Below, piece after piece: positions 47,682 to 64,000 of a stretch of DNA of 64,000 nt. A model generated the notes under the pieces. It was given only the letters and a program-made list of their open reading frames with translations. It was not told where the DNA came from and ran no database searches. Both the position numbers and the translations under genes were made by a program. The stretch is taken from positions 31,006-95,005 of the forward strand of contig NZ_WTLI01000013.1 in assembly GCF_011421635.1 (NCBI RefSeq), given 5' to 3'. Origin of the DNA: Paenibacillus turpanensis (GTDB lineage: Bacteria > Bacillota > Bacilli > Paenibacillales > YIM-B00363). Every line of letters begins with the position of its first letter. Position 1 is the stretch's first letter.

Positions 47682-47861
47682 ACAACCACTCCTTTTCAAC
47701 AGGTACGACTCCAATAGGCAAAGCAATAGATTTACCTTATTGTACTACATGGCAACCAATCTAGGAACGATTTGGAAGTAGATTCTCACGCCGCTATATA
47801 AACAAAAAAATCATTTCGCTGCTCTTAACCTTTCGTTAAGCAGTAAAATGATTTATGTATC

Positions 47862-48452
47862 CTATATTTTTTGCTTCGCTGCTTCAAGCTGAAATCCCCG
47901 CGTCTCCAAATACTGTGCGATATACTCTTCACGAAGCCGTTCACTTTCCTCAATCATCGGATCAAGCTTCGAGCTATGCTGTGCAATCAACCGATTGCCT
48001 ATGTACACGCTGTGATAGTGATAACAACCCAAATCATACAGAACCTTTTCCAGACAGCCTGGGATATTGGAGGCTACTCCAGTATTCTCTTGATGCAAGA
48101 TCCATTCGGCTTCCTTCCAATCCAAAATGCCCTCAACCGTTCTTCTCGGTGTGGGATAGCATACAACGTCCGAAAGCTCCGCTAAATATAAATAAAGGCC
48201 GCCAAAGCCCTCACCTTCCGGTGTTGACCACGTTATGATTCCTTTAAAAATGGCATCGGGAAGATCAAGTCCCGTTTCCTCACGTATTTCTCGCAGCATC
48301 GAAGCTTTTGGCGACTCCCCATCCTCGAGCTTTCCTCCCACTCCGTTCCAGCTGCCCATCCAGGGAGGATTTTCACGGTTCAGCAGTAAAACCTTCGTGT
48401 CTTGTCTAATTAACCCTAAGGTATATTTCATCATTTCGCTGCCTCTCCTCAT
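47862..48452 (-). CDS. NUDIX hydrolase
   Basis: Nudix box GGKLEDGESPKASMLREIREETG. Confidence 0.8.
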   Translation of the reverse strand: MRRGSEMMKYTLGLIRQDTKVLLLNRENPPWMGSWNGVGGKLEDGESPKASMLREIREETGLDLPDAIFKGIITWSTPEGEGFGGLYLYLAELSDVVCYPTPRRTVEGILDWKEAEWILHQENTGVASNIPGCLEKVLYDLGCYHYHSVYIGNRLIAQHSSKLDPMIEESERLREEYIAQYLETRGFQLEAAKQKI

Positions 48453-48524
48453 CCCCGATTTCTATCTATTTCAATAGTAAAGTTATGCCAACCGCCAACA
48501 CCATTATGCTTCTTCGAGGTCGAT

Positions 48525-49217
48525 TTACTCCCAGATTACAATCCTCTCTTCATCACCCTGCACAAAATGAACGCCTCCGGCAGCCGTAGATCCGCTAGAA
48601 TTCCTTTTTCCAAAAAGCAGCTGCAGCGGCTGTGCCGTGTAATTCAGTGTATAACGATGGCTAGAACGCGGCGGGAGCAGCACCTCCTGATGCTCGATCT
48701 TAAGCTTAGATAAGCCAATGTATTTATGAAACTCGTCCTGCAGCAAGGGCTTCACGCCTACCTGCATTGGACTTGAACCGTAATTCATAAGCTGAAGCTC
48801 ACACCGTATATTGACCTCTTCTTTCCCAGTATTAAAATTACATTGACTATCCTTCGCCGAATAATCAAGTGTGGGTAGGCCGGATCGATTCACATTCAGT
48901 GCGAGCGTTGACCAATAGCTAAGCGTCGGAAAAGCAAAAATAAGTATGACACAGCTTAACACAGCCCTTCGGCCTATTTTGGGGTACCGCCCCCTGCAGT
49001 AATCCATGAAGAGCTTTCCGCTTACCACCAGCAGCAGAACGCCGAACACAATCGGGTAATGGATTCCTTCGCCGGGACTCTTACTCCACGGAGGAATGCC
49101 AATCGACTTAAAAACAAAATCACCAAAGTACATGCCACGATGATCCACCACTAACATGAGCAAGGATAAGCAGAACAGCAGAAAATAGCCAATCCCTTTG
49201 TTCCATCTCCATTTCAA
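48525..49217 (-). CDS. Hypothetical membrane protein
   Basis: N-terminal TM helices, C-terminal soluble domain. No family recognised. Confidence 0.5.
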   Translation of the reverse strand: MKWRWNKGIGYFLLFCLSLLMLVVDHRGMYFGDFVFKSIGIPPWSKSPGEGIHYPIVFGVLLLVVSGKLFMDYCRGRYPKIGRRAVLSCVILIFAFPTLSYWSTLALNVNRSGLPTLDYSAKDSQCNFNTGKEEVNIRCELQLMNYGSSPMQVGVKPLLQDEFHKYIGLSKLKIEHQEVLLPPRSSHRYTLNYTAQPLQLLFGKRNSSGSTAAGGVHFVQGDEERIVIWE

Positions 49218-49283
49218 CTTTATTCCCCCTCGCCATTACATAACTCTTGTAAACAACGTACCTTCCTCTTTGCGAAATCCTGC

Positions 49284-49799
49284 TTATGTAAAAAAAGTCT
49301 CAGGATACTGCAGCTCTCCGTTTACCTTCTCCAGTTCACCAGCCGCAAGCTCACAAACCATAAACACTTCGTCCGGTACCTTGAATTGGAGCAGCTCAAA
49401 CTGGAATGCTCTAGCAGGCTTAAAGCCAAAGCGCGGATAATAGCTTGGATGGCCGATCAAGAAAACAAGCCCCGCTCCAAGCTCACGGCATCGGCTTAAA
49501 CCTTCTTCCACCAGCATACTGCCAATTTTTCGCTTCTGCTGATCTGGGATCACTGCAATAGGTGCAAGCACAATGACCTTATGCGCAAGGTCATTCTCTA
49601 CCACGACGGCCTCACTCAGCAGGATATGCCCTACAACCCGTCCGTCCTGCTCCGCAACGATTGAGAGCTCCGGCACGAAATGGGACGAAGCCCGAATTCG
49701 CTCTACTAATGTAGATTCGTCTTCCCGTCCCCCAAAAGCATGATAATGAATAGAGTAAACCGCCTCGTAGTCCTTTTTTTCTTCGGTTCGTATGATCAT
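49284..49799 (-). CDS. GNAT family N-acetyltransferase
   Basis: QQKRKIGSMLVEEGL motif A. Confidence 0.8.
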   Translation of the reverse strand: MIIRTEEKKDYEAVYSIHYHAFGGREDESTLVERIRASSHFVPELSIVAEQDGRVVGHILLSEAVVVENDLAHKVIVLAPIAVIPDQQKRKIGSMLVEEGLSRCRELGAGLVFLIGHPSYYPRFGFKPARAFQFELLQFKVPDEVFMVCELAAGELEKVNGELQYPETFFT

Positions 49800-50569
49800 C
49801 TGTACTCGTATTCCCCCTTTCCTTTAAATGCGGTGATCAAATAACGCTTCGAGTTCGTTCGGATCCCCTTCTCATCTCGATTCACATTTACATAATCACG
49901 CAAATACTGAAAGTCACAATCCTGTTCGCCAAAATGCGGGATAATCGGGGTATGCTTCAGCAGAAAGATCAGATCCTCCACCGACGGATAGTACTCCACC
50001 GCATTGTATTCTTGAACCTCAATGCGGGCGAAGCCAGCGGCATGCAGCGCTTCTACATAGGCCGCTCGCTGAGCTCCATCTTTTACCCCGAAAGACTGAC
50101 CGCGTTGAAACGCCATTTTCAAATCAAATTTATCGTGTTCACTTACCTGCTGCGTGACGAAAATTCCATTCTCCCCAAGGACGCGGTATACCTCATGCGG
50201 GTGAAAAGGAGCGTGCCTGCACGACACGATGTCAAAACTTCCGTCCAGAAACAGCAGCTCCGCGGAATCCATTTGGCAAAATCGAAACGGCACGCCCCCG
50301 TGTAGAGAAGCAAGCTCCTGCGCCTTCTTTATCATTTCAACTGATCGGTCGATTCCTACAACGTGCCGGAAATTCCGGCAGTTCTCGAGCAGCAGCTCCC
50401 CGCCCCCAGAACCGATATCCAATAAACGCGGCCGTTCAGTTGAATAACTCGCCACCAGCGGATAGAAATCCCACAACGCTCCTTCTACATGAACCTTCAG
50501 AGAACGAAAGTCCCAACCATTTTCCCTGCCGATCCGCTCATAAAAGTCCTTTTCATCAAAATCGGTCAT
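49796..50569 (-). CDS. Class I SAM-dependent methyltransferase
   Basis: RBS AAGGGGAAG, ATG (MTDFDEKDFY...), motif I LLDIGSGGGELL. Confidence 0.8.
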   Translation of the reverse strand: MTDFDEKDFYERIGRENGWDFRSLKVHVEGALWDFYPLVASYSTERPRLLDIGSGGGELLLENCRNFRHVVGIDRSVEMIKKAQELASLHGGVPFRFCQMDSAELLFLDGSFDIVSCRHAPFHPHEVYRVLGENGIFVTQQVSEHDKFDLKMAFQRGQSFGVKDGAQRAAYVEALHAAGFARIEVQEYNAVEYYPSVEDLIFLLKHTPIIPHFGEQDCDFQYLRDYVNVNRDEKGIRTNSKRYLITAFKGKGEYEYR

Positions 50570-50655
50570 GATATCCCTTCTTCCCCTTGCCCAGCGCGAG
50601 AATCCTTTTCGGACCAACTCGCAAATGGTTCTCCCATGATCGGGGCGCGGGACCC

Positions 50656-51297
50656 CTATATTCCAGACGCACGCTTCGGCCTTAAAGCAATCTCCCACAA
50701 TACCTTTTTATTTTCGTACCGATCGAGCTCGTACTCTTCCATATGCACAAACTCCCACATTTCATTCGTAAAAAAGCGTTGGATTTCGTCCCGATTAAAA
50801 AATCTTCTAAAAATCCCTTCATTTTCGAAAAGGTAGCTATCCGTGCTTTCTTTTACTTCCCCTACGTTACCCATTTCGTGAATGGAGTTTAAGCGGCAGA
50901 GCAGCAACCCGCTTTCTGTAAGCACCCGATGAATGTCTTGAATGACTTGAATCGTCGTTTGCGCGTCAAAATAGTGAAGACTTAAGTCCGCAATCAGCAC
51001 CTTAACCGATTGATCCTCAAACGGCAGACCCTTCGTCATATCAAAACAATACGTGACGCACTCCGGCAAAACGCTTTTTAACCGGTGTAACGCTTCTTCG
51101 GAAATATCGCATGCAAGCGGCTGCATTCCCTTTTCTACCAAATAAACGCTATTGTTACCCAGCCCGCAGCCGAGATCAACAATCGCACCGCTACCTGCAG
51201 CGAGCTGCTCCGCATATTTATCCAGCCACAAATCGTATCTCGGAAACAGCTCAGGTCTTTGAAACATAGCGTTCCAATATTCTTTCAGACTTTTCAC
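50656..51297 (-). CDS. Class I SAM-dependent methyltransferase
   Basis: Motif I IVDLGCGLGNNSVYL. Confidence 0.8.
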   Translation of the reverse strand: MKSLKEYWNAMFQRPELFPRYDLWLDKYAEQLAAGSGAIVDLGCGLGNNSVYLVEKGMQPLACDISEEALHRLKSVLPECVTYCFDMTKGLPFEDQSVKVLIADLSLHYFDAQTTIQVIQDIHRVLTESGLLLCRLNSIHEMGNVGEVKESTDSYLFENEGIFRRFFNRDEIQRFFTNEMWEFVHMEEYELDRYENKKVLWEIALRPKRASGI

Positions 51298-51337
51298 GTT
51301 CGCGCGCCATCCTTTATGTCGAAATAAAAAGCTACCT

Positions 51338-51694
51338 TCAAGGGGCCCTCCTCGTATCCTGCATAATCAGCTTATGCAGTACGCTTTTACCGCTGACCAG
51401 CTCAAAGCTTCGAATAAAAAACCATAGAAACCCCGCATAAAATCCGACCCAGGGGTACCGAAAAGACGCCGGCTTGTTGCCCTCGAAGCAGAAGTGTCCG
51501 ACCCACGAAAAGAGATAATGCAGCACAGCCAATACCAAGGTTGCCCAAATATTCACAAACAAAAAGATCCAACCAAGGAACGCAAATAAAAAGGCAAAAT
51601 AATGCAATATTTGATTCCAATGATTTTGATGGGCGTTCACGTAATACGTTACATCTCTTCGTACCGTCTGCGTAAGCTTCGGCCAAGGCGTCAT
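51338..51694 (-). CDS. DUF962 (Mpo1-like) membrane protein
   Basis: ...HYFAFLFAFLGW...GHFCFEGNKPASFRYP... resembles DUF962 family members. Confidence 0.6.
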   Translation of the reverse strand: MTPWPKLTQTVRRDVTYYVNAHQNHWNQILHYFAFLFAFLGWIFLFVNIWATLVLAVLHYLFSWVGHFCFEGNKPASFRYPWVGFYAGFLWFFIRSFELVSGKSVLHKLIMQDTRRAP

Positions 51695-52161
51695 GTCTGA
51701 ATATACCCAGTTTTTCGAAGTAAGAGCTCCGAAAAAGGGTTGAGATTTGCAATTGGCTTGTCTAAGGGAAAATAAGCGAGCTCCAAGCCCTCATCGTCCT
51801 GGATTGTCGGTTCTCCCGTGACCCCCGTCGCTTCATAAACCGCCAAAACGTTATAAACCTCGTCCCCGTGCGGGTACTTAAAGTACATCTCTTTTCCGGA
51901 CAAAACGGTGACGAACGTGAACTTCTCTGCCGTCAATCCCGCTTCCTCAAGTAATTCCCTAGCGGCGGCTTCCTCTAAAGATTCACCCAGCTCCAGCGCT
52001 CCGCCAATCGTGCCCCAGTCCTTGGTATCGGTTCGTTTTTGCAGCAAAATATGCCCTGCATCGTTTTTCACTATGACACAGGCACCTGCCATAATTAGGG
52101 GCCGGGAGCCCACCATTTTACGCAAATCCATAATGTATCCCATGTTTTCGCCTACTCTCAC
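51691..52161 (-). CDS. NUDIX hydrolase
   Basis: Nudix box GGALELGESLEEAAARELLEEAG. Confidence 0.8.
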   Translation of the reverse strand: MRVGENMGYIMDLRKMVGSRPLIMAGACVIVKNDAGHILLQKRTDTKDWGTIGGALELGESLEEAAARELLEEAGLTAEKFTFVTVLSGKEMYFKYPHGDEVYNVLAVYEATGVTGEPTIQDDEGLELAYFPLDKPIANLNPFSELLLRKTGYIQT

Positions 52162-52201
52162 ATTTCGTAATGAACTTCATAAGGACGATCGTACTCTTGC
52201 T

Positions 52202-52675
52202 TCACGTCAGCACCTTTTCCATACAGAAAAATGGAAGTGTCCTCCTAGGAAAATGAACCTGACCTCGCAGCTCGTATCCTAGCTTGCGGTAAAACGAAAC
52301 CGCTCTATCATTTCCGCTATATACATCTAAACGGATGGAATTGTAGTGCTCTCGAATGCAAGAGGCATGGGCAAATTCCATCAATTCCAACGCAATTCCT
52401 TTCCCCTGGTGCTCTGGCCTTACCGATAACCGATGAATGATGGCATACTTGTCGTTCGCATCGTTCCAATCGATGGATCGATAGGGTTCTGGCTCTAGCT
52501 GATCCATGGTTACAACACCTGCAATATCGCCATGAACTTTCAAGATATAAATCGTATGGTGCTGGAGATCCTCCTGAATCACTTCTCGATTCGGATAAAT
52601 TTCGTCCCATTGATGGATGCCTTGAGCCTCTAGCTCCAATCTGCATTGCTGAAACATGGAGTATATCGACTCCAC
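52202..52675 (-). CDS. GNAT family N-acetyltransferase
   Basis: HQGKGIALELMEFA motif A. Confidence 0.8.
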   Translation of the reverse strand: MESIYSMFQQCRLELEAQGIHQWDEIYPNREVIQEDLQHHTIYILKVHGDIAGVVTMDQLEPEPYRSIDWNDANDKYAIIHRLSVRPEHQGKGIALELMEFAHASCIREHYNSIRLDVYSGNDRAVSFYRKLGYELRGQVHFPRRTLPFFCMEKVLT

Positions 52676-52759
52676 ATCGTGTTCACCAGGCCTTGTGATG
52701 ACGATAAGAATCCCCCCTGCTATTAAATGAAGTCAGTTTTGGGGTTTCGCGGCTCGATC

Positions 52760-53197
52760 TTACTGTATCGAATAGTGATACAAAAACATTCCGGAATATC
52801 GGACGTGAAATCCGTTCTTTATCTTTTCATACTCACTTGGATCAATACCAAAAGAAAAATCGGAGCCCGGTCCAATCCCGATTTGTCCAATTCGGATATC
52901 ATTGCCCTCAAGATCCGTTAGCTGAAAATCCTTATACGAGCCTACCGTGGTAAAGGTCCCGTCATCATTAATGACCATATTGTACAGCAGTGTTCCCTCG
53001 CTGTAATTCATGTCACGGAATGTCGTATGAAAGCTAAAATAGATGTCGTTCTGTTCGACCACGTAGCGATCCCGGTCCAAAATATTTTGCACAATTCTAC
53101 GGTCACCGAAGCGATCTTGAACGTATTCGTAGCTCAGATAGCCTCCAATGATGAGCAATACTACCAAGAAGGTCCTCATTACGTGTCTTTTTTTCAT
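52760..53197 (-). CDS. Hypothetical membrane-anchored protein
   Basis: N-terminal TM. No family recognised. Confidence 0.45.
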   Translation of the reverse strand: MKKRHVMRTFLVVLLIIGGYLSYEYVQDRFGDRRIVQNILDRDRYVVEQNDIYFSFHTTFRDMNYSEGTLLYNMVINDDGTFTTVGSYKDFQLTDLEGNDIRIGQIGIGPGSDFSFGIDPSEYEKIKNGFHVRYSGMFLYHYSIQ

Positions 53198-53447
53198 TGT
53201 TTCGATCCTTTCCGAAGACCCGCAGCGCTTGCCTTCTTAGCGTTGTTTCAGTTTAATCGTCCACCCAAAACTTATAATTCAACCCGTTGACGTTTGCGAG
53301 ATAAATATAAGTAGAAATGCCGGAGACGGCACTAACAATCAAGGATTTGATAATCGACTGGTTTAACCCCAGCTGAAGAAGAAAGCACATCATAAGAAAG
53401 GTAACGACAAAAAAAATGCCTCAAGGATGGCCATAATATACAGAACC

Positions 53448-53951
53448 TTAGATTTCGATACGTTGACCTCCTTCGCATAAATGACGTTCAGACAAACTTT
53501 TGCTCATCGTATACCAGCGGTCCCTCTTACAGGGGTACTCGTGTTCCTGGATGAGAACATAGTTCAGCTTCGTATAGTAGTTGACGTTCTCCGGCAGTGA
53601 CTGTCGCACTTCCAGCCTCACTTGAGCAAGACCTTTCGTTCGAGCCGTATCCTCCAAATAAGCAACGATCCTTCGGCCGATCCCTCTTCCTCTCCAAGCT
53701 GGCAAAACGGAAATCCGACCGATATACAGATAATCCTCTTCCACATAATACTGGGCCGAACCAACAGGCTCCGACTCCGCCCAAACCAAAACAGCACCGC
53801 CACGACCCTGAATTTTTTGCCGAATCGCGTCCACCGTTTCCGTGATCGCCCCGCTAGGAGGGATCAGCTTATCCTTGTACTCTATGAATGACTCAAACAT
53901 AATCATTCTTACTAACTCCAGCTCATTGTCTTTGGCTTCACAAATCAGCAT
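53448..53951 (-). CDS. GNAT family N-acetyltransferase
   Basis: WRGRGIGRRIVAYLE motif A. Confidence 0.8.
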   Translation of the reverse strand: MLICEAKDNELELVRMIMFESFIEYKDKLIPPSGAITETVDAIRQKIQGRGGAVLVWAESEPVGSAQYYVEEDYLYIGRISVLPAWRGRGIGRRIVAYLEDTARTKGLAQVRLEVRQSLPENVNYYTKLNYVLIQEHEYPCKRDRWYTMSKSLSERHLCEGGQRIEI

Positions 53952-54016
53952 CCCGGCAACTCTGCACTCCTTATCATTTACAGGTGTAATGTCATCTTTT
54001 ATGCATGATTCCTTGA

Positions 54017-54823
54017 TTATTTAGCTAGACTTTCCTCATTGATTTTCGGAAAATTTGCATCCTGGATATGGAAATCCCGTAATGGTGCGAGGTCATGTTT
54101 TCCCAGATTGCCTTTGATTTGCTTCGTTTTTCCCTGCTCATCCGTTCTTTGCAGGATATAATCTCCTGTCAACAGGTTATAGTCCTCTTCATCCGCATTC
54201 TCTTGAATGGCATTCCCTGTATAATAGGAGCCCGTCGTCACCCCAATCAAATACCAATCGTTATCCTGGTATCGAAACCGATAATCGTTATACCATCTCC
54301 AATTACTGCCCCCATAATGGCTGACCACAATGGAGCCTCGATTTATCGTAATGCCCTCAAACGGATCTCCCCATATTCCGCCCTCATCTGCTTTTAAAAT
54401 GACATGGTCTGCAAGGATCGAAAGTGAATACGAATGGTCCTTCTCGCCAAATGCAATAAGGAGCGAGCGGGCCGGGGCTTCCTCATTTGGACTTTTCGTC
54501 TGCTCTAGGACGACCGCAGCATCCAGAATGCCGTCTTGGTTTATATCCCCTTCAGCTTTGACAGGTACATCCTTCTGTATCTCTAGGATTCGCCAGCCTT
54601 CCGGAATAAGAGAAACGAATGGATCTTCCGGTTGTTGAATCTTCCTGTCCTGCGGAGCGGGAGCATCCCCGGCTTTCGCCTCCTTCCGCACCTGTTCAGG
54701 CTCTTGTATGGAGGGCGTTGGCGTTGGTACCGGAGCAGGCTCAGGACTTGGTGAATCATTACACCCAGCGAGCATCCCGCTTACCGCAGAAACAAACATA
54801 CAAACGAATAACAGCTTTTTCAT
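54017..54823 (-). CDS. Hypothetical lipoprotein with Pro-rich linker
   Basis: Lipobox LAGCNDS followed by PSPEPAPVPTPTPS. Confidence 0.6.
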   Translation of the reverse strand: MKKLLFVCMFVSAVSGMLAGCNDSPSPEPAPVPTPTPSIQEPEQVRKEAKAGDAPAPQDRKIQQPEDPFVSLIPEGWRILEIQKDVPVKAEGDINQDGILDAAVVLEQTKSPNEEAPARSLLIAFGEKDHSYSLSILADHVILKADEGGIWGDPFEGITINRGSIVVSHYGGSNWRWYNDYRFRYQDNDWYLIGVTTGSYYTGNAIQENADEEDYNLLTGDYILQRTDEQGKTKQIKGNLGKHDLAPLRDFHIQDANFPKINEESLAK

Positions 54824-54858
54824 AAAATCTCCTTAGATGATGAAGTTTTGAAGTATTA

Positions 54859-55425
54859 TCACTTTTCCTGGAATTTTAATTTCGTCCTTAGGAGAATCCC
54901 CGCCAATAGAAAATATAAGAGTCCGACATTACCGAATAAAACCTCTGACTCCCCGGTGGAAAAGAAATAAAATCCCACGAAAAGGCTGGCTACCGGAAGG
55001 GCATAGAACAAGCTCGTTTCATAAATCGCTCTGAATACGTCCTTCAGCCGTATGAGGTGATAAACGAACAAGAAAAGCATAAGCAAAAAAATAAAGATCG
55101 GATTTAATAAAGCGATTCCTCTATTCACTGCAAAAAAATAAGCGAAATCAAGGTTAATGTAGCCCGATGCAATCAAATACGTAATCGGTGCTGCTCCGGT
55201 CACAAAACCAATCCCATACATTACACGCAAGCTATTGCAAAATCTTTGCAGTAACTTTTCCATTTCTAATATCAACGTATAAATCAAAACAAAAATAAAG
55301 GATAGAAATAATCCAGCCAATAAATAAAGGTAGTTAGGTTCTGTACGAATAAACAACATCGGTCCAAGCCATGCAGCGGCCGAACAAATGAAAATGATCA
55401 TTAGCTGAATTTTGAAATGATTCAA
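54859..55425 (-). CDS. Hypothetical polytopic membrane protein
   Basis: Six hydrophobic segments. Confidence 0.5.
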   Translation of the reverse strand: MNHFKIQLMIIFICSAAAWLGPMLFIRTEPNYLYLLAGLFLSFIFVLIYTLILEMEKLLQRFCNSLRVMYGIGFVTGAAPITYLIASGYINLDFAYFFAVNRGIALLNPIFIFLLMLFLFVYHLIRLKDVFRAIYETSLFYALPVASLFVGFYFFSTGESEVLFGNVGLLYFLLAGILLRTKLKFQEK

Positions 55426-55619
55426 CGCGATTGCTCCTTTATATCATTTTGCTTACACTCCTCCAACTATTGTACATGATTCCATCCATTCAAGGAACGA
55501 TTTGGAAGAGCGGAACGAGAAAAAGAGGACGCAGCGAATGCATCCTCCTTCAAATTCAATTCTACTAAAAACCGTAACCCAGCAGGGTTAACGCCCAGCC
55601 ATCAAAAAGTTTCTTCTGC

Positions 55620-58600
55620 TTATTCCTTGATCTGATCAATCAAGAACCCAAGGTCAGACAGCAAATGCTGCGCAAACGTTTGATCAATATGCTTCCCGCT
55701 TTGGGCGGTAACTTCGTGTTCCAACGCAATGAGGGCATTTCTGGCCTGCTCTTCGCGATTGGCGTTTTGCACCTGCTTCACCTTCGCCCGCAAGCTATTG
55801 TATACGCCGTGATTCGAGATCCATCCGTTGTCGGAGGCCATTTGCAGCGCCTTATCCAGGTGAGCGCGGTCCATCGTTACATGCAGCACCGACTCGTAAA
55901 CCGTAACGTTTCCGGCATGGTCTTGAGCGGTAATGACAATGCGATGATCACCTATCGATAACGTGTACGGATTCACGGTCAGCGGCAGCTCTGCGGCTCC
56001 CCCATTTAATGAGGCCTCCACCTTCGCAACACCACTTAACGAATCCGTGATTTGGAATGGCAGGGACAGAGAGTCCGAACGGTAAACCGTTGTGGTCACG
56101 GTTGGCACCACATTGGGTCCAGTAACATCCACCTGAATCTCAATCTGTTGGATGGACTCTTCATTTCCTGCCGCGTCCACACTGTAATAGCGGAGGGTAT
56201 GGAGTCCTTCTTCATGAATCGTCACTTCATTTCCAGAAACAAACGGTTCATCGTTTACACTATAGTAGGTGGCGCCAACCACTCCTTCGGCATCGACAGC
56301 TGTTAGTATAATAACCTGCGCTGCATTCTGCCAACCGGTTTTCGCGTTTGTGGTCGTTACAGGAGGAGTAACGTCCTTGGGTGTTTCCAGCGTTTTTACC
56401 TTCACGACATTGGACGCTTCCGATTCGCCGCTGGCGTTTTGCGCTTTAATATAGTAAGTGTATTCGATTCCCGGTTCTACGGAACGATCATAGAAGGTAT
56501 CCACCTTGGCGTATCCTACCATCACGACCGGGCTGCCTTCCGACTCCCGATAAATATTGTACTGAGCGGCACCGCCATGCGAAGTCCAAAGCAGTCCGAC
56601 AAAGTCTTCCCCTTTAGCTCCTACCGTCAGATTGGACGGCGTAGCAGGCAGCGGCATCGCCAAGGCAAGCTCATCAGACGGTACCGACTCGCCCATCTCG
56701 TTGGCGGCTGTAACGCGGTAGCTGTAGCCATTCCGACTCACGCTTACGCTATCGTCTACGTAGGAAGGTGCTGTAGCGCTGCCCACTCGCACAAAGTCAT
56801 TTGCGCTTTCATTGGCCGCTCTTCGATAAATATTGTAGGATTCCGCTGCTTCAACCGGATTCCAATGGAATGAAAAATTCGATGTGGTTACTTCATCCGC
56901 TGTTAAGCCTGCAGGCTTTTGCGGGATCGCCACCGGCGGCTTGGTTGTAGCACTGACCGTGTCAGACATTGCCGTTTCACCGCCAATTCCAGTCGCCGTA
57001 ATTCGGTAATAATAGGCTGTCGCTGGGGTAACGGTAAGATCGTTATAGTCTGCATATAAAGAGTGGGCAATTTTCGTAAAAGGACCATCCTGCGACGGTG
57101 CCCGGTAAATGCTATAGTACATCGCACCTTCGACAGGTCCCCACTCGAGTCCGACGGAAATACTGTTAACGGATGTAACGGATACTTTAGCCGGTACGCT
57201 AGGCTTCGACTGTGAAGGGTCAAACGTAGACACCGAGACTGATGTAGAATGCGGTGATTCCCCTCCGGCGTTGACAGCGGATACCTTATAATCATAGACC
57301 ATTCCCTGCTCTGCACCCGTGTCCGTATATCCTTCCGTCCCTGCACTTGCAATCACGCGGAACCGGTGATCCAGCATGGAGGCGCGATAAACCAAGTACC
57401 GTTCTGCACCATCAACGGCAGACCATTGCAAAGCTACGACATTATCCTCTGTTTGCGCAGCTGTCACCTCAGCCGGGCCCGCTGCAGGAGGAGCCGCTTC
57501 TGGACTTGCAGGCTTCACAATAACAAAGTAATTCATCCGAGAGGTGCTGCCATTCGGACCCATCTGAACGAAAGATCCCGCAGCGAAATTCTTCTTATAA
57601 AGCTTAAACTGAACCGGCTGGCTGTCCTCGATGACCAAACCGGTGTCCTCATACGCCCTAAGCCATGCAGGCAGCGTCGTGATCCGTGAATCATGCCCCA
57701 CATACACTTCAGTATCCGCCGTTATATAGAAGGAGACCAAGTCGTCGGTCGAGGAACTTCTCGAGCCCACGGCCGAACGAATCCATTCCATCCCCTTTAC
57801 TTCATCAGGTACGGTGACAAATCGATAGCCATTGCTTCCGGTCATGCGATCCCCGGCGACAAAGTCTCCCGGCTGAAGATTTTGCTGAATCGAATAATTC
57901 GCCGCGTTCGTACTGCCGCTTCCGCTGTTATCGTGAATCACTACATTACGCAGGAGCTCCCCATCCAAAATCGGCGCCGGCGTAGGGTCTGGTTCCGGTT
58001 CCGGTGTCGGCTGCACCGGTGGAATGAAAGGAGATCCCGCCCATGGCAGCGGCGACATCGGATAGATCGCTGGAAATCCGGGTGCGGCCAGCTCATTTAA
58101 GTAGTCCTCCAAATGCGTGTACCCGTCGCCATTGCTGTCGCCGTTCCGGTCCTCCGGATTGGAAGGGTCCAGCCCCTTCGCCGTTTCCCACGCATCCGGC
58201 ATTCCGTCCCGGTCGCTGTCTGCTGCAGCAGTTCCCTTCGGCAGCTGCGGAAATCCTCCCGCATCGTCCTCGTGACCGATGATGACACCCGTTTGATAAC
58301 GAACACTATCCGTTACGCGCTGATCGACGGCGTCCCGATATAAAGAAGCGCCCGCGTAATCCAGCACATACTCATAAGCGGCTTCCGGCTCCTGGGTATG
58401 TACCGGCGGATATTCAAAGCGCTCCGGTACAATCAGGCTGGGACGCTCGGCTTCCATCATCCCGATTCCCGTATCGCTGCCGTCCAGCACACCGTTTTTA
58501 TTGCTGTCGATCCGGTTGTTATCCAAGTAGAGGCTGTAATTTTCATTCCCGCGGACAACGGCATATTGAGGGTCGGCCGAGTTTAATCCCGCAACAAAAT

Positions 58601-59408
58601 AGTTGCCGACCACGTTTCCGTAGCCCTTCGTTCCAGATTCTCCCCCTGCCACATAAGGGTAACCGCCCCAGTTGTAAACGATATTGTTGACAAAATCGAT
58701 CTGGCCCTTGGTCTTCGGGTTACGGTCATTGTTATGGGCATACAAATTGTGATGCATTGTGATCGTGTTCATCTCAATTAAGCCGCCCATCGAGTGCGTG
58801 AGCAGTCCTTCCGAAATGATCGACCATTGTACGGTAATGTTTTTGGATTTCGGGTCTTCGTAGTTCTTACTTTTAATGGACAAGACTTCATCGGTGCCCC
58901 ATGAAAAAGAGGAATGGTCTATGATTACATTTTGGCAGTCTTCAAAATACATCGTATCGTCCTGGAACGACTGCCTTCCCAAACGGAAGGTCATGTACCG
59001 GATGATGATGTCGCTGCAATTAATAAAACGGATGTTATTCCCGCGGATCGTTACTCCGCCGCCAGGCGCCGTTTGCCCTGCAATCGTAATCTTTGACTTA
59101 TTGCGAAGCACAATCTGTGGAATGGTAATCTCACCGGAAATATCAAAGACGATCGTACGAGGTGTGGAGCCGGCTGTTGTAAGCGCGTCGTGGAAGGTTC
59201 CCGGACCCTTAAGCTCATAGCTTGTGACATGATATACCTCTCCCCCTCGTCCGCCTACGGCGGCATAACCGAACCCTTCGGCTCCCGGAAACGCAGGCAG
59301 CGCATCATAGCCCGCTTTTACGGTAGAAACCGGCAGCTGGAACAAGGACAAAACCATCACAACAGACAAAAGGAACGTCAACAGCTTCTTCAAACGCTGC
59401 ACCTCCAC
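55620..59408 (-). CDS. Large secreted multidomain pectate lyase (PL1-like right-handed beta-helix) with four fibronectin type III repeats and C-terminal Ig-like domains
   Basis: Signal peptide. ...LPAFPGAEGFGYAAVGGRGGEVYHVT... pectate-lyase signature. Repeated LQWSAVDGAERYLVYRA / LEWGPVEGAMYYSIYRA FN3 motifs. Confidence 0.85.
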   Translation of the reverse strand: MEVQRLKKLLTFLLSVVMVLSLFQLPVSTVKAGYDALPAFPGAEGFGYAAVGGRGGEVYHVTSYELKGPGTFHDALTTAGSTPRTIVFDISGEITIPQIVLRNKSKITIAGQTAPGGGVTIRGNNIRFINCSDIIIRYMTFRLGRQSFQDDTMYFEDCQNVIIDHSSFSWGTDEVLSIKSKNYEDPKSKNITVQWSIISEGLLTHSMGGLIEMNTITMHHNLYAHNNDRNPKTKGQIDFVNNIVYNWGGYPYVAGGESGTKGYGNVVGNYFVAGLNSADPQYAVVRGNENYSLYLDNNRIDSNKNGVLDGSDTGIGMMEAERPSLIVPERFEYPPVHTQEPEAAYEYVLDYAGASLYRDAVDQRVTDSVRYQTGVIIGHEDDAGGFPQLPKGTAAADSDRDGMPDAWETAKGLDPSNPEDRNGDSNGDGYTHLEDYLNELAAPGFPAIYPMSPLPWAGSPFIPPVQPTPEPEPDPTPAPILDGELLRNVVIHDNSGSGSTNAANYSIQQNLQPGDFVAGDRMTGSNGYRFVTVPDEVKGMEWIRSAVGSRSSSTDDLVSFYITADTEVYVGHDSRITTLPAWLRAYEDTGLVIEDSQPVQFKLYKKNFAAGSFVQMGPNGSTSRMNYFVIVKPASPEAAPPAAGPAEVTAAQTEDNVVALQWSAVDGAERYLVYRASMLDHRFRVIASAGTEGYTDTGAEQGMVYDYKVSAVNAGGESPHSTSVSVSTFDPSQSKPSVPAKVSVTSVNSISVGLEWGPVEGAMYYSIYRAPSQDGPFTKIAHSLYADYNDLTVTPATAYYYRITATGIGGETAMSDTVSATTKPPVAIPQKPAGLTADEVTTSNFSFHWNPVEAAESYNIYRRAANESANDFVRVGSATAPSYVDDSVSVSRNGYSYRVTAANEMGESVPSDELALAMPLPATPSNLTVGAKGEDFVGLLWTSHGGAAQYNIYRESEGSPVVMVGYAKVDTFYDRSVEPGIEYTYYIKAQNASGESEASNVVKVKTLETPKDVTPPVTTTNAKTGWQNAAQVIILTAVDAEGVVGATYYSVNDEPFVSGNEVTIHEEGLHTLRYYSVDAAGNEESIQQIEIQVDVTGPNVVPTVTTTVYRSDSLSLPFQITDSLSGVAKVEASLNGGAAELPLTVNPYTLSIGDHRIVITAQDHAGNVTVYESVLHVTMDRAHLDKALQMASDNGWISNHGVYNSLRAKVKQVQNANREEQARNALIALEHEVTAQSGKHIDQTFAQHLLSDLGFLIDQIKE

Positions 59409-59705
59409 AAATCTAAATTTTTCAACCCTTCAAACTGCACGGCAAGCAACGAAAACCGTAAACGCTTTCAAAACCTCGGGTACCAAACGCCCCTCTCCTT
59501 GATCTCCTCAATCACCTCCTTTGTTCGATGTTACCGCCATCTTACTCCCGCTGGAACTCACTGGCAATCAATCGATCCTACACACAATGTGCAAAAATTG
59601 GATGCGGATACTAACGCGCTGTGCACAAAAACTGTGCTTAAAAATCACATATTTGTTGATGTCCTGTAACAATTGTGCCCCGGCCTTGCCCTCCTAGCAA
59701 AAAAA

Positions 59706-59730
59706 GCCAACCGGCTTCGGTTGACTGCGA
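59706..59730 (-). terminator. Terminator-like hairpin with T7 tail (minus strand)
   Basis: caaccggcttcggttg followed on the minus strand by TTTTTTT. Probably the ancestral terminator of the AraC gene, before the insertion. Confidence 0.4.
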
Positions 59731-59748
59731 GCATAATTTAATGGGGTC

Positions 59749-59801
59749 AAAAATTCGGTACATGCTTATCGTAACATGGTAGTGGAGCTCCCTTGCCGAA
59801 A
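59749..59801. repeat. 53-bp direct repeat, copy 1 (duplicate of the 3' end of the AraC regulator gene)
   Basis: aaaattcggTacatgcttatcgtaacatggtagtggagctcccttgccgaaac. 52/53 identical to 60723-60775. Confidence 0.85.
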
Positions 59802-59904
59802 CTCTTGATTCCGGACTACCAACCGGTTTTTACCACTAACATAAATGGTCAGAAAGAACTTGTTTTCAAAAAAGGGATATGAAGACGCAGAGAAGATGGT
59901 GACT

Positions 59905-59945
59905 AGATAATAAAAAATAAATAGACGTCGTCCATATAGACGACG
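59905..59945 (-). terminator. Terminator of the PPC-domain gene
   Basis: agacgtcgtc-catata-gacgacgtct perfect 10-bp stem. Minus-strand reading is followed by an A/T-rich T tract. Confidence 0.5.
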
Positions 59946-59958
59946 TCTTGAGAAAGAT

Positions 59959-60435
59959 TTAGTTTACAGCTAATTGATAATAAAATTGATTGACATCGCT
60001 ATTTTCGCTATAGGGTGAAACATGCAACTTATATTTCGTATTAGGTGACAATTGGATTCTTACTTGTGTCAAAGTTTCATTATCAATGAGCCACTCTTTT
60101 GAAACATAGCCACCGTTTTCTGTAGTAATTGAAAGTGAGTATCTTACACCACCATATGGATTTACTAGTGTAATTAGAGCAGTATCACTAGGGAAGTTTT
60201 GTGGAATCTCAAGTAAATACCAATCATGGTCGGAAGTACTGCTAAGAGTACCCAATTTATTAAGACCAAAAGGATTTGTGCTTACAGAACCAGCTGTATA
60301 TAACTCTGGAGTGTAATAACTGTTATTCTGAATGTCGTTTTGTTCATAGATATTGCTATTAGCGAAGGCACTTTGTGATCCAAAAGTTAATGATGCTACT
60401 GCTGTTAAAATAACTGCGATTTTTTTGATTTTCAT
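59959..60435 (-). CDS. Small secreted protein with pre-peptidase C-terminal (PPC)-like domain, in an AT-rich insert
   Basis: Signal peptide MKIKKIAVILTAVASLTFGSQSAFA. ...SDHDWYLLEIP...TKYKLHVSPYS resembles PPC/collagenase-type beta-sandwich domains. Local GC is well below its surroundings. Confidence 0.55.
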   Translation of the reverse strand: MKIKKIAVILTAVASLTFGSQSAFANSNIYEQNDIQNNSYYTPELYTAGSVSTNPFGLNKLGTLSSTSDHDWYLLEIPQNFPSDTALITLVNPYGGVRYSLSITTENGGYVSKEWLIDNETLTQVRIQLSPNTKYKLHVSPYSENSDVNQFYYQLAVN

Positions 60436-60722
60436 AGCTTCTCCTCCTAGAATAAAATGGAACGGCTGGCCAACCTATCCATGTAATATATTACCATAGT
60501 AAATGTAAATATCAACCATTAATTGTAAACTACAATATTTAATATAATTTCCCCCAATGTATAAAATATAATAATTACCAATCTTACCCTAAAACACTAA
60601 TAACCGTTTATTCGTCATCATGAACATTCTTCCGTGTAATTGATAGATTTGGACAAATTCCATTCAGAGTTATCGCAAGCTATAAAACGTATAGCTCTGG
60701 CCCCCTCCTTAGCCCAAAACTC

Positions 60723-60775
60723 AAAATTCGGCACATGCTTATCGTAACATGGTAGTGGAGCTCCCTTGCCGAAAC
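60723..60775. repeat. 53-bp direct repeat, copy 2 (overlaps the last 13 codons of the AraC regulator gene)
   Basis: aaaattcggCacatgcttatcgtaacatggtagtggagctcccttgccgaaac. Confidence 0.85.
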
Positions 60776-63051
60776 GCATCCGATTTCATTGGAGTTGAAC
60801 GATATTCACCGGGAGTCATTCCCGTCAGCTGCTTGAATCGCCGAATAAAGCTGGAAACATTATAATAACCCACCTCCTCCGATACGGTCTTTAGTGGCAA
60901 TTGGGTGGTAATCAAAAGCTGCTTCGCTTTCTCCATCCGTAAAGTGGTTGTGTATTCCAGTAAGGTCTGCCCCGTTCGTTCCTTGAAAAATTGCCCAAGG
61001 TTGGGCAGAGCCATGCCGAAACGTTCGGACATGGCCTGCAATGAGAACTCGCAGCTGTCGTAATTGGTTTCAATATAGCCAAGCATAGCTTGGATTGAAC
61101 GTACATCCGATGCATCTTCGACTTTATCCAAAGCAGGTTGACGATTTGCAATGGCATTGTATAAGTCCGAGCTGACTTCCTTCATCAGATACTCAAATTC
61201 ATCAATGGTCTCCATTTGCTCAAGAGAGAAAATGTCAGGGTAACGATCCGACACTTTGTCATGCAAGCCGGCCTCTCTCCAAACCCCGTTCATGATACGA
61301 ATCATTTCAAAACAAAGACCTCGAGTGATGAGAAGAGGAGGCTGCTTTTCCTTAATGAACAAAATGAGTAAAGAAACGCTCTCTTGAATGCTCTCTTTGC
61401 TCCCCGCTTGAATCGCCCTTTTTAAGTCTTCGACCCCGGAAACCGGATAATCGTCCACTCCATTCGGCCGCAGAGGGATACGGTCAAAATAGATCACTCG
61501 ATTGATCCCTTGGATAAAACGATAGCCTATCGCCGTTTGCGCCTCGAGATAAGATTGAGGAGCATTCCCCAAGCGAGTGGGAGCCCCTACACCGATCGTT
61601 ACGGATGCTTTCACGGATTGGCTTATAGCCTGGTGAAATGCTTGAAGTCCTACATCTGCTTCCTCCATGAACTCCATTTCCGTAAATATCACAAACACAT
61701 ACCGGTTACTTTCCATATGCTCAATTCCGTAGGCCAGACATGACGATGTGAAACGTTGTTCCATCTCTTCGATTCTCGGATGCTGGTTCAGATGCAAGTG
61801 GGACGGAAACTCAACAATTGCTACACGTACATAAGGATAAATAGGGATTGCCAACCCGATTTCCCCGCCATACTGAATCATCCCATCTAAATCTCGAATC
61901 TCTCCCTTTAGCAACGAGAGCATCAATTGCCTTTTGGCTGCCGAGGCCTGATTTTTCACCCGCTCATCCAGCTCTTGGTTTCGGATCGCCAAGCGGGTTA
62001 ATACCTCCCTGACCGTATCCAGCTCGTTCAGAATCTTCCCCTTTGGGAATAAAACCTGGATGCTGTCATTCCGCAGCCGATGGATGGGCTTATAATTGAA
62101 AAGCATGCTAAAGTAAATGATCGCTCCACCAAATATCAATAATAAAACAACGCCTATGGTGAACCATTTTTGCGCAAGCTCGACCTTATGTAAGACGAGA
62201 TGGACGGGCTGTAAAGAAACATACTTCCAACCCGTTTGTTCCGATTCCACGAAAAACATGTAATAGGGTTTCCCCTCAATATCGAGCTTCTGATATTCCA
62301 AGGAAGGTTGATGTGCCACTAATTCCGCTATGGATTGCTTAGTAGGACCATCCCTTGTCTCGATGCCGGTTACGAGCTGGTTGTTTTGATCAAAAATCCA
62401 AGTCGACCTCTCTGCCTCCGTGGAATCATAAGAGGACATCAAACGATGAATTGCTTCTTCCTTGATCAGATAAACAAGTGTTCCGTAGGATTCCTTCTGA
62501 TTCGGAAATAGAGGAACAAACATTCGAAGGTATTTCTGTCCCGATACCGCATCCTTTTGCGGAGTAAGGATTTCTGTGCGGACCGTACTATGAAGGCCCC
62601 GTTCCAACTCTGTCTCCGAAAGATCCTCGAATTTATAAATTTGATTCGCCAGAACCGGAATGGTGTAGACACCGCTGCTGGTGAAAACCGAATTTTCATT
62701 TTTATAATACAGCCAAATTTCATGAACGTATGGGGCAAGTCTTTGAAAGCGCTTAAGTTCGCGTGTAATCCCCCATGCTTTGTACCCCCATTGATTGGAG
62801 ATACGGTATGGATAAAGACTGTTATCATACAGGAGCAGCTGACGGGTCATATCCTCAATCCATAGTAGTTGGTTATCCATGGAGTAGCGGACCTTATCCA
62901 GGTTCGTAAGGTTATTGGAAATTACCTCTTCCTGCAGCTTGTTTACAAAGAGAGTATTGACGACAAGTGTTAGGACGGTAATTGGGATGAGAAGAATCAG
63001 CAAATAAGAAGCCAGGTATTTCAAAAAAAATCGGTACGCATTTGTACGCAC
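60739..63051 (-). CDS. Membrane-bound AraC-family one-component regulator (N-terminal TM plus extracytoplasmic sensor domain, second TM, C-terminal AraC HTH)
   Basis: 770 aa. TM helices at ~15-35 and ~290-312. C-terminal ...VSEEVGYYNVSSFIRRFKQLTGMTPGEYR AraC HTH. Confidence 0.8.
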   Translation of the reverse strand: MRTNAYRFFLKYLASYLLILLIPITVLTLVVNTLFVNKLQEEVISNNLTNLDKVRYSMDNQLLWIEDMTRQLLLYDNSLYPYRISNQWGYKAWGITRELKRFQRLAPYVHEIWLYYKNENSVFTSSGVYTIPVLANQIYKFEDLSETELERGLHSTVRTEILTPQKDAVSGQKYLRMFVPLFPNQKESYGTLVYLIKEEAIHRLMSSYDSTEAERSTWIFDQNNQLVTGIETRDGPTKQSIAELVAHQPSLEYQKLDIEGKPYYMFFVESEQTGWKYVSLQPVHLVLHKVELAQKWFTIGVVLLLIFGGAIIYFSMLFNYKPIHRLRNDSIQVLFPKGKILNELDTVREVLTRLAIRNQELDERVKNQASAAKRQLMLSLLKGEIRDLDGMIQYGGEIGLAIPIYPYVRVAIVEFPSHLHLNQHPRIEEMEQRFTSSCLAYGIEHMESNRYVFVIFTEMEFMEEADVGLQAFHQAISQSVKASVTIGVGAPTRLGNAPQSYLEAQTAIGYRFIQGINRVIYFDRIPLRPNGVDDYPVSGVEDLKRAIQAGSKESIQESVSLLILFIKEKQPPLLITRGLCFEMIRIMNGVWREAGLHDKVSDRYPDIFSLEQMETIDEFEYLMKEVSSDLYNAIANRQPALDKVEDASDVRSIQAMLGYIETNYDSCEFSLQAMSERFGMALPNLGQFFKERTGQTLLEYTTTLRMEKAKQLLITTQLPLKTVSEEVGYYNVSSFIRRFKQLTGMTPGEYRSTPMKSDAFRQGSSTTMLR

Positions 63052-63123: not shown

Positions 63124-64000
63124 TTATCTTTTTTGGTAACGGTCGTAAGCCGCCTGATATATTTCGATCGCTCTTTCAATATTCATTTTCTTCAACGTTC
63201 CTCTGTAATTCTCGAAGTTCTCTAATGATTCATTGCCCATAATGAATTTGAGCAGCATTTCTTTCATATACGTATCCGCTTCGCTCATGATTTTACTGAT
63301 TTCCTGACTCTCGTCCCCCTTAAACAAAAGCGGCGGAAGAAGAAGCGTTCGATCTGCATTGAACCAGCGCTCATTGGCTTCTGCAGCTTCGGGATATTGC
63401 AGCTCAAACGAAGCCCATGCGTCGAAATCCATCACTTTTACCATACCGGAAGTCGGATAGGCATAGCGTGAAATGGCAACCCTTGCTTCATAATTCGGGT
63501 TCTTCGTAATCTCATCGGTAAACTTCTTTTTTCCGTTTTCTACAATATAGCTTTTTCCTTCAATTCCCCAGTTTTGCAGGTCGCTGCCTTCCGGGCTGAT
63601 CATAAAATCCAGAAGCTTGACGACAGCTTCCGGGTCCTTGGCTTGCGAACTGACTACAGCGCCTTCTAATGGAACATACTGCGCCAGCTGCGCACTCGCA
63701 CTGAAGGATTTTCCAGCCGGGCCGATCGGAGGAGTGACTCCAATTAGCTTGAATTCCGGAATGCTCCCCTTCATCAGGTTCTTATAGGAGTTGATTCCTG
63801 TAATGGTCCCGCTGTACGCCCCGACCGTGTTGTTGGAAAATTTCGCCTCGAAGCCCTTCTTATCCGTTGCGGCAAATTCACTGTCGATAAGCCCCTCCTG
63901 GTACCATTTATGCATCGTTGTCAGGAAATCCTTAAAGGCAGGATCGTATGGACCGTAAGTAACCTTGCCGGTATCCGGGTGAATTTGGAAGGTGGTCAAA
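63124..64000 (-). CDS. ABC transporter extracellular solute-binding protein. C-terminal part only: the gene continues beyond the window end.
   Basis: C-terminal ...YRGTLKKMNIERAIEIYQAAYDRYQKR typical of Paenibacillus family-1 solute-binding proteins. The listed ATG at 63999 is internal. Confidence 0.75.
   Translation of the reverse strand, partial: LTTFQIHPDTGKVTYGPYDPAFKDFLTTMHKWYQEGLIDSEFAATDKKGFEAKFSNNTVGAYSGTITGINSYKNLMKGSIPEFKLIGVTPPIGPAGKSFSASAQLAQYVPLEGAVVSSQAKDPEAVVKLLDFMISPEGSDLQNWGIEGKSYIVENGKKKFTDEITKNPNYEARVAISRYAYPTSGMVKVMDFDAWASFELQYPEAAEANERWFNADRTLLLPPLLFKGDESQEISKIMSEADTYMKEMLLKFIMGNESLENFENYRGTLKKMNIERAIEIYQAAYDRYQKR

Follow-up and report, generated by a model that had tools for sequence, protein, structure and literature searches.

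A 920-nt AT-rich insert bounded by 53-nt direct repeats lies at the 3' end of a gene for an AraC-type regulator in Paenibacillus turpanensis, within a 64-kb stretch of contig NZ_WTLI01000013.1 that was analysed as a whole and is here called the window. We consider a recombinase-independent insertion with long target duplication at the 3' end of this gene the best fit to the locus and, on balance, a probable one, because 53 bp far exceeds the duplications made by transposases and because neither a recombinase nor conserved element ends accompany the insert. Insertions of this kind have been described (Nobusato et al. 2000, Gene 259:99; Furuta, Abe & Kobayashi 2010, NAR, PMC2853133) and form a known but rare and little-studied group; what is unusual here is the host and a cargo that is not a restriction-modification system. 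The original prediction, made before any database search, had proposed the insertion of a foreign cassette with duplication of its target, or else the scar of a larger element. The insertion itself is supported by outlying values of guanine plus cytosine content (GC) overall and at third codon positions (GC3), by the host-like composition of the repeat and by a stranded terminator, while the choice between a true duplication and the scar of an integrase-borne element stays inferential.

The direct repeat of about 53 bp was borne out by a search of the window, its two copies agreeing at 52 of 53 positions and exceeding 30 bp on both sides of the insert. Copy 1 lies one base away from its predicted place (59750-59802 instead of 59749-59801) and the start-to-start spacing is 973 instead of 974 nt, the second copy occupying 60723-60775. 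When up to three mismatches were allowed, the 53-mer matched these two copies alone in the window and 100 shuffles gave no match; a chance match of two 53-mers is excluded. The repeat gains three matching nucleotides at its low-coordinate end if a one-base difference in an A run is accepted, which brings copy 1 to 56 nt and copy 2 to 55 nt. Both differences between the copies, this homopolymer length and one substitution, fall in the distal quarter of the repeat, and copy 2 has at its edges the arms of a 7-nt inverted repeat, TTCGGCA...TGCCGAA. The fold of the 53-mer as DNA does not stand out from shuffles (z = -1.6 to -0.1), Rfam gave no match at E <= 1, and the 42-nt core common to both copies had no match in metagenome contigs.

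Copy 2 does form the end of the AraC-type gene, as had been proposed; it holds 11 complete codons and one nucleotide, not 13 codons, ahead of the stop, and it also takes in 16 nt of the 3' untranslated region (UTR). Its GC content of 47%, counted directly, is host-like. Since the 53-mer encodes the AraC tail, has this host-like composition and, at copy 1, is followed by a stranded terminator, it indicates a duplicated host target, the native gene end probably having once consisted of copy 1 together with the distal terminator. The hairpin of that terminator (59705-59726; -13.7 kcal/mol, U7 tail) begins 39 nt after the stop codon in copy 1, a usual distance, which agrees with the earlier view that copy 1 lies just before the original terminator. 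No terminator was found after the real AraC stop, and for this reason regulator transcripts should now read through the cassette as far as the cassette's own terminator. The C-terminal tail of the regulator is variable among orthologues and of comparable length in them; it aligns with the orthologue of P. xylanilyticus up to residue 767 of 770. Past the distal terminator, the minus strand continues with the gene of a pectate lyase/fn3 protein of 1262 aa, headed by its promoter region.

The DNA between the copies had been described as of much lower GC than its surroundings, and this held: at 34.1% GC the insert is the lowest-GC 920-nt stretch of the window, where 920-nt windows average 48.7% (standard deviation 4.6) and the next-lowest value elsewhere is 38.5%. 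The GC3 of the 158-aa open reading frame (ORF) inside it is 24.5%, against 43-61% in 18 other ORFs. In 200-nt windows the shift in GC falls at about the repeat edges, and a GC near 34% is found in each sub-part of the insert, namely its 3' part of 120 nt, the 610-nt core of promoter, ORF and terminator, and the 190-nt flank on the 5' side. Around the expression unit the insert carries about 310 nt of non-coding flank. Six-frame translations of both non-coding flanks gave no match to the fetched loci and contain stops in every frame. The coordinates of these features are collected in Table 1.

Table 1. Positions of the insert, its parts and its surroundings in the window, with the settings of loci that carry homologues of the 158-aa protein.
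Feature	Position	Strand	Description
AT-rich insert	59803-60722	-	920 nt, 34.1% GC
Repeat copy 1 (distal, stranded)	59750-59802	-	52/53 against copy 2; extends to 59747 with a one-base A-run difference
Repeat copy 2 (gene-proximal)	60723-60775	-	11 complete AraC-type codons + 1 nt, TAA stop at 60739-60741, 16 nt of 3' UTR
Insert 5' flank, non-coding	60533-60722	-	190 nt, 33.7% GC; no homology to the loci of homologues; stops in all six frames
Cassette promoter (predicted)	60488-60515	-	TTGATA, 16-nt spacer, TG-extended TAATAT; inside a tandem 21-nt promoter-like repeat
Ribosome-binding site (predicted)	60441-60448	-	AGGAGGAG; 5 nt 5' of ATG; located by inspection of the sequence
158-aa ORF	59959-60435	-	Sec-type signal peptide, then a remote PPC / collagen-binding-domain-like beta-sandwich
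Cassette intrinsic terminator	59913-59948	-	11-bp stem, T run
Insert 3' flank, non-coding	59803-59912	-	about 110 nt, about 34% GC, between cassette terminator and copy 1; no homologue found
Stranded native terminator of the AraC-type gene	59698-59726	-	9-bp stem, -13.7 kcal/mol, U7 tail
Target gene	60739-63051	-	770-aa membrane-anchored Cache / GGDEF_2 / HTH_18 AraC-type regulator; intact
Sugar-binding protein gene	63124-63999	-	end of the upstream transporter cluster
Homologue loci L001/L002			neighbours are DUF1003/DUF402 genes
Homologue locus L004			between a Band_7 gene and a YjfB_motility-family gene
Homologue locus L008			orphan-gene region, 1.3 kb from an IS66 transposase
Homologue locus L009			orphan-gene region, about 1.8 kb from an HNH-domain gene
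Homologue locus L012			among housekeeping-type genes

The insert holds one complete expression unit, composed of an extended -10 promoter, a ribosome-binding site, the ORF for a 158-aa signal-peptide protein and a strong terminator. That the cassette carries such a terminator of its own had been foreseen; its hairpin at 59923-59948 has a folding energy of -18 kcal/mol (z = -6.9) and is followed by a T run. The promoter region contains a tandem 21-nt promoter-like repeat (TTTACA..GGTTGATA / TTTACA..GGTAATA) at 60484-60524 on the minus strand, kept in the homologue loci L001 (2558-2599) and L002 (1232-1273), which suggests two overlapping promoters or an operator. The ORF is also bracketed by a 23-nt inverted repeat, 78% complementary, with arms at 59960-59982 and 60510-60532, which could be due to chance in AT-rich DNA; DNA homology with L001 stops at 60532, where the upstream arm of this repeat also ends. 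At the ends of the insert no terminal inverted repeats were seen on inspection and none were reported by the repeat search. A weak similarity links the opening 18 or so nucleotides of the insert to the repeat's start (p about 0.02 in an anchored test made post hoc), and local alignments of the insert ends with the native terminator region, or with a possible third degenerate copy of the repeat, scored within 2 standard deviations of shuffles.

The N-terminus of the cargo protein reads as a classical Sec signal (MKIKK-hydrophobic-SAFA|NS, residues 1-25). Beyond it, no Pfam match was obtained at E <= 0.1 and nothing significant in NCBIfam, PHROGs or PDB sequences; the Pfam PPC family (PF04151) matched one of 16 family members at E = 0.015, without reaching its gathering threshold. 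A profile of the family nevertheless found 80 proteins in a representative set of 1.84 billion, comprising further stand-alone relatives of 146-185 aa and many multi-domain proteins. Several of the latter carry Pfam PPC, and in one of them, P0058, the PPC domain coincides with the matched stretch; hhalign against this domain returned a probability of 87%. In the AlphaFold (AF2) model residues 1-55 are poor, and residues 71-140 form an eight-strand sandwich with predicted local distance difference test (pLDDT) values of 72-89. The top PDB matches in Foldseek were collagen-binding domains of clostridial collagenases (3jqw, 4hpk and 1nqj) along with a PPC domain from a collagenase of Bacillus anthracis (5sv5), the best match having a probability of 1.0 and an E value of only 4.5e-3. 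Profile search, hhalign and Foldseek hence agree on a PPC / collagen-binding fold by remote homology, and they support the view that the mature protein would be a single remote PPC / collagen-binding-domain-like beta-sandwich, below the family threshold. The earlier description of a signal-peptide protein with a PPC-like beta-sandwich is right in this sense, as a remote relationship. The PPC and collagenase collagen-binding domains share with the cargo the fold and a D-x-D-W-Y motif; in contrast to them, the cargo protein stands alone behind its signal peptide and is not the tail of a protease.

A search for further copies of the protein and of the 53-mer had been suggested, and it gave six other homologues of the protein among 5.8 billion proteins, 46-71% identical; the 53-mer is unique within the window. 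All six come from Paenibacillus or from metagenome and sequencing-run contigs, and the gene family is rare and patchy, its members occupying unrelated contexts in other Paenibacillus (Table 1). Pairwise DNA similarity between loci is limited, reaching from about 70-145 nt 5' of the ORF through 35-100 nt 3' of it, which corresponds to 59923-60532 in the window. Because the similarity is confined to this segment, the unit common to the genomes appears to be promoter, ORF and terminator alone, without defined element ends. No meaningful flanking direct repeats were found at L001, L002, L004, L008, L009 or L012, and in most of the homologue genomes too the cassette gene is more AT-rich than its surroundings. 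The source of the insert was sought by blastn against plasmids and phages and by profile-guided scans of viral and metagenome contigs, and both searches returned nothing.

The locus can be compared with a published class that was defined by genome comparison for restriction-modification cassettes and is characterized by unique repeats of 46-423 bp and the absence of mobility genes, with low-GC inserts included (PMC2853133). In that class a stop or start codon is often contained in the duplication, which keeps the target gene whole, and in two Haemophilus influenzae cases 46-bp repeats overlap the 3' end of a gene (PMC2853133). The same mode of insertion has been cited for "other DNAs" (PMC3457768). 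The P. turpanensis locus resembles the class in that the insert is shorter than 20 kb and lacks mobility genes, the repeats are longer than 30 bp and, within the 64 kb of the window, occur at the target only, the repeat spans the stop and leaves the target intact, and the GC of the insert is below that of the host; the overlap of the repeat with the 3' end of a gene is very like the two Haemophilus influenzae cases. It differs in its host, a Gram-positive spore former, and in its cargo, since a small secreted PPC-like protein takes the place of the restriction-modification genes by which the class was defined. The authors of the published cases suggest that DNA breakage by the restriction enzyme takes part; with a cargo that encodes no nuclease, a break made by its own nuclease cannot be invoked and host processes would have to suffice.

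Under an insertion with a long duplication of the target, a fragment of about 0.9 kb from a donor of lower GC would have entered the P. turpanensis lineage at the 3' end of the gene for the AraC-type regulator, comprising the complete unit together with the roughly 310 nt of donor non-coding flank. The most likely route starts with a chromosome break of long stagger, or with breaks 53-56 bp apart in two sister copies, after which a foreign linear fragment would have been joined by end-joining or template-switch repair with filling-in of the single-stranded target. Host DNA of 53-56 bp, representing the final 11 codons with the stop codon and the first part of the 3' UTR, would have been left on both sides of the insert in this manner. 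The event probably survived because the duplication spans the stop and leaves the regulator ORF intact. The regulator's own terminator would have been moved 973 bp downstream, and the cassette would also be expressed from its own extended -10 promoter and is predicted to export a small single-domain protein of a binding type. Moreover, the 53-bp repeats would leave the insert open to precise loss or amplification mediated by RecA.

A scan of the ORFs of 150 aa or more in 47862-63051 revealed no integrase or transposase, in line with the original prediction, nor was a gene or remnant of a tyrosine or serine recombinase found in or next to the element; the insert, at 920 nt with one ORF, is below 20 kb and has no mobility gene in or beside it. 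The scanned neighbours in 47862-55425 that have a Pfam match are GNAT, NUDIX and methyltransferase genes, and three others gave no match. Several known types of element were considered and rejected. An insertion sequence (IS) or a miniature inverted-repeat transposable element (MITE) does not agree with insert ends that are not inverted repeats and with a duplication of 53 bp instead of 2-14 bp. Duplications made by IS1630 are much shorter than 53 bp. IS1630-type elements of the IS30 family, whose duplicated targets are long, variable inverted repeats (cited in PMC2853133), do resemble the locus in an unusually long target duplication that contains an inverted repeat, but the insert has neither a transposase nor terminal inverted repeats. 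An integron cassette was rejected because the 53-mer has no significant fold, shows by eye no match to GTTRRRY / RYYYAAC, the consensus of the integron core site, and is accompanied by no integrase. A prophage or plasmid fragment was set aside as well, phage, plasmid and viral collections giving no match.

Among the alternatives to an insertion with long target duplication, the 53-mers could be the attachment (att) sites attL and attR of an integrative element that entered the 3' end of the AraC-type gene carrying a replacement gene end, and that later lost its integrase and most of its cargo, leaving a remnant like a cis-mobilisable element (CIME). It is typical of integrase-borne islands that their direct repeats overlap a gene's 3' end and restore it, and at our locus one of the two repeats does complete the target gene. 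Remnants without a recombinase are known as well, as in the CIMEs related to ICESt1 and ICESt3 at the 3' end of fda in Streptococcus thermophilus. They share with the locus a pair of direct repeats at a protein-coding gene's 3' end, of which one copy makes the gene complete, and the lack of a recombinase inside, but the present insert is 920 nt without a remnant of recombination or transfer genes, its target is a non-conserved tail and no related element or integrase was detected. The att arrangement is also represented by the class of Figure 1b in PMC2853133. Mild support comes from the 7-nt inverted repeat that bounds copy 2 and from the distal position of both copy differences, and Paenibacillus species differ in what lies downstream of the AraC gene. 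Against these points stand the scan for an integrase gene, which found none in 47862-63051, the lack of any coding remnant in an insert whose flanks have stops in all six frames, its small size and uniform composition, the lack of a significant fold in the 53-mer, and homologues of the cassette that have neither repeat flanks nor a linked integrase. Furthermore, a lineage-specific, non-conserved tail with its 3' UTR would be a poor landing site for a transmissible element, and we regard this origin as unlikely. A still less likely origin is a two-step or homology-driven event, in which a short tandem duplication of the gene end was afterwards split by an unrelated insertion, or in which a circle carrying a 53-bp host segment, for example one excised from a sibling genome, entered by a single crossover of the Campbell type. 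The end product would be the same, two direct repeats around foreign DNA, and the weak resemblance of the first 18 or so nucleotides of the insert to the repeat start could be taken in its favour; tandem duplication followed by recombination is discussed as an alternative to long target duplication (PMC3457768). The two-step version, however, needs two independent events at the same base pair, the foreign circle must already have held 53 bp of lineage-specific sequence and so merely moves the original event elsewhere, and the resemblance at the junction is weak and came to notice only afterwards.

It is highly improbable that the arrangement is an artefact of assembly, or an old native one with a repeat that is coincidental or kept by gene conversion. 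The source is a draft assembly, with a contig of 153 kb, and the repeat length is near k-mer sizes in common use by assemblers. A k-mer overlap artefact, however, would be exact and adjacent; the two copies here are told apart by a substitution and the length of a homopolymer, and between them stand 920 nt of unique DNA that joins the host at both ends. An assembly overlap was rejected on this basis. For a native arrangement, a chance match of the repeats is excluded, and a GC of 34% and a GC3 of 24.5% kept to the present argue against long residence. Several points nevertheless weigh against an insertion with long target duplication as well. The original prediction had suggested comparing GC and codon usage with the flanks and aligning the locus with relatives; the first placed the insert as the lowest-GC stretch of the window, while the second gave no empty site, the species apparently being represented by one assembly and the closest AraC orthologue being 65% identical, so that the direction of insertion rests on composition and anatomy. 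The loci L005-L007, L010 and L011 are too distant from the target locus for an empty-site comparison. In addition, the uniqueness of the 53-mer was judged within the 64-kb window and the lack of a recombinase within 47862-63051, the position of the copy differences in the distal quarter would also fit partly homologous att sites, and the repair mechanism is inferred, the published cases likewise lacking an established one. We think it very unlikely that the cassette is recurrently mobile without a recombinase, spreading in Paenibacillus by host-repair insertion as a general route of acquisition in Gram-positive spore formers independent of restriction-modification cargo, or that the 53-mer is the site of an unrecognised recombinase acting in trans.

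The genes downstream of the regulator gene vary between species. The intact 770-aa AraC protein has as its best relative in the collection of 5.8 billion proteins one that is 65% identical, and a scan of genome contigs with it gave 50%-identical loci only. Looked up by exact sequence, neither the 158-aa protein nor the identical entry P0001 nor the AraC protein matched a contig. The 158-aa neighbour is present at 100%, as a hypothetical protein of the same species, yet the regulator has no relative above 65%; its annotation in the public record may differ, with another start or a pseudogene label for instance. Where examined (L010 and L011), the cluster of transporter and regulator genes is kept, and the gene directly downstream of the regulator differs in each locus examined (L007, L010 and L011). 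Among those found in this place are a gerPA-family gene with a cadherin-like/SLH-domain protein gene after it, a small AraC gene, the pectate lyase gene in the window and, in L007, an unannotated 667-aa ORF on the opposite strand. The 3' end of the regulator gene is a recurrent synteny break in every species compared.

Elsewhere in the window, a 188-aa ORF of 37.6% GC without a Pfam match lies directly downstream of the pectate lyase gene (54859-55425, minus strand), and this low-GC orphan may represent a second acquisition nearby. A 41-nt motif occurs with 80% identity at 47738-47778 and 55468-55508, 7.7 kb apart; the latter copy sits 43-83 nt upstream of the start of the 188-aa ORF, and the motif may be a shared promoter or operator. 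Further away, a gene at 28184-29461 on the minus strand encodes a 425-aa membrane-anchored protein with about 15 tandem MSGMDMSGSGGGG-type repeats and a DNA period of 42/45 nt. Divergent from it, at 29596-31512 on the plus strand, lies the gene of a 638-aa protein with histidine motifs like those of multicopper oxidases (HWHG, HCH..H), and taken together the two proteins resemble a methionine-rich pair for copper handling.

As a route of gene gain, insertion with long target duplication is little known and has no mechanistic explanation; nearly all documented cases concern restriction-modification genes. A harmless cargo without a nuclease in Paenibacillus suggests that host repair alone can yield such events, and the locus would show a foreign gene landing inside the end of a regulator gene without damage to it. 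For P. turpanensis itself, the analysis marks the 158-aa gene as a recent horizontal acquisition, which may now be co-transcribed with the regulator of a pectin locus.

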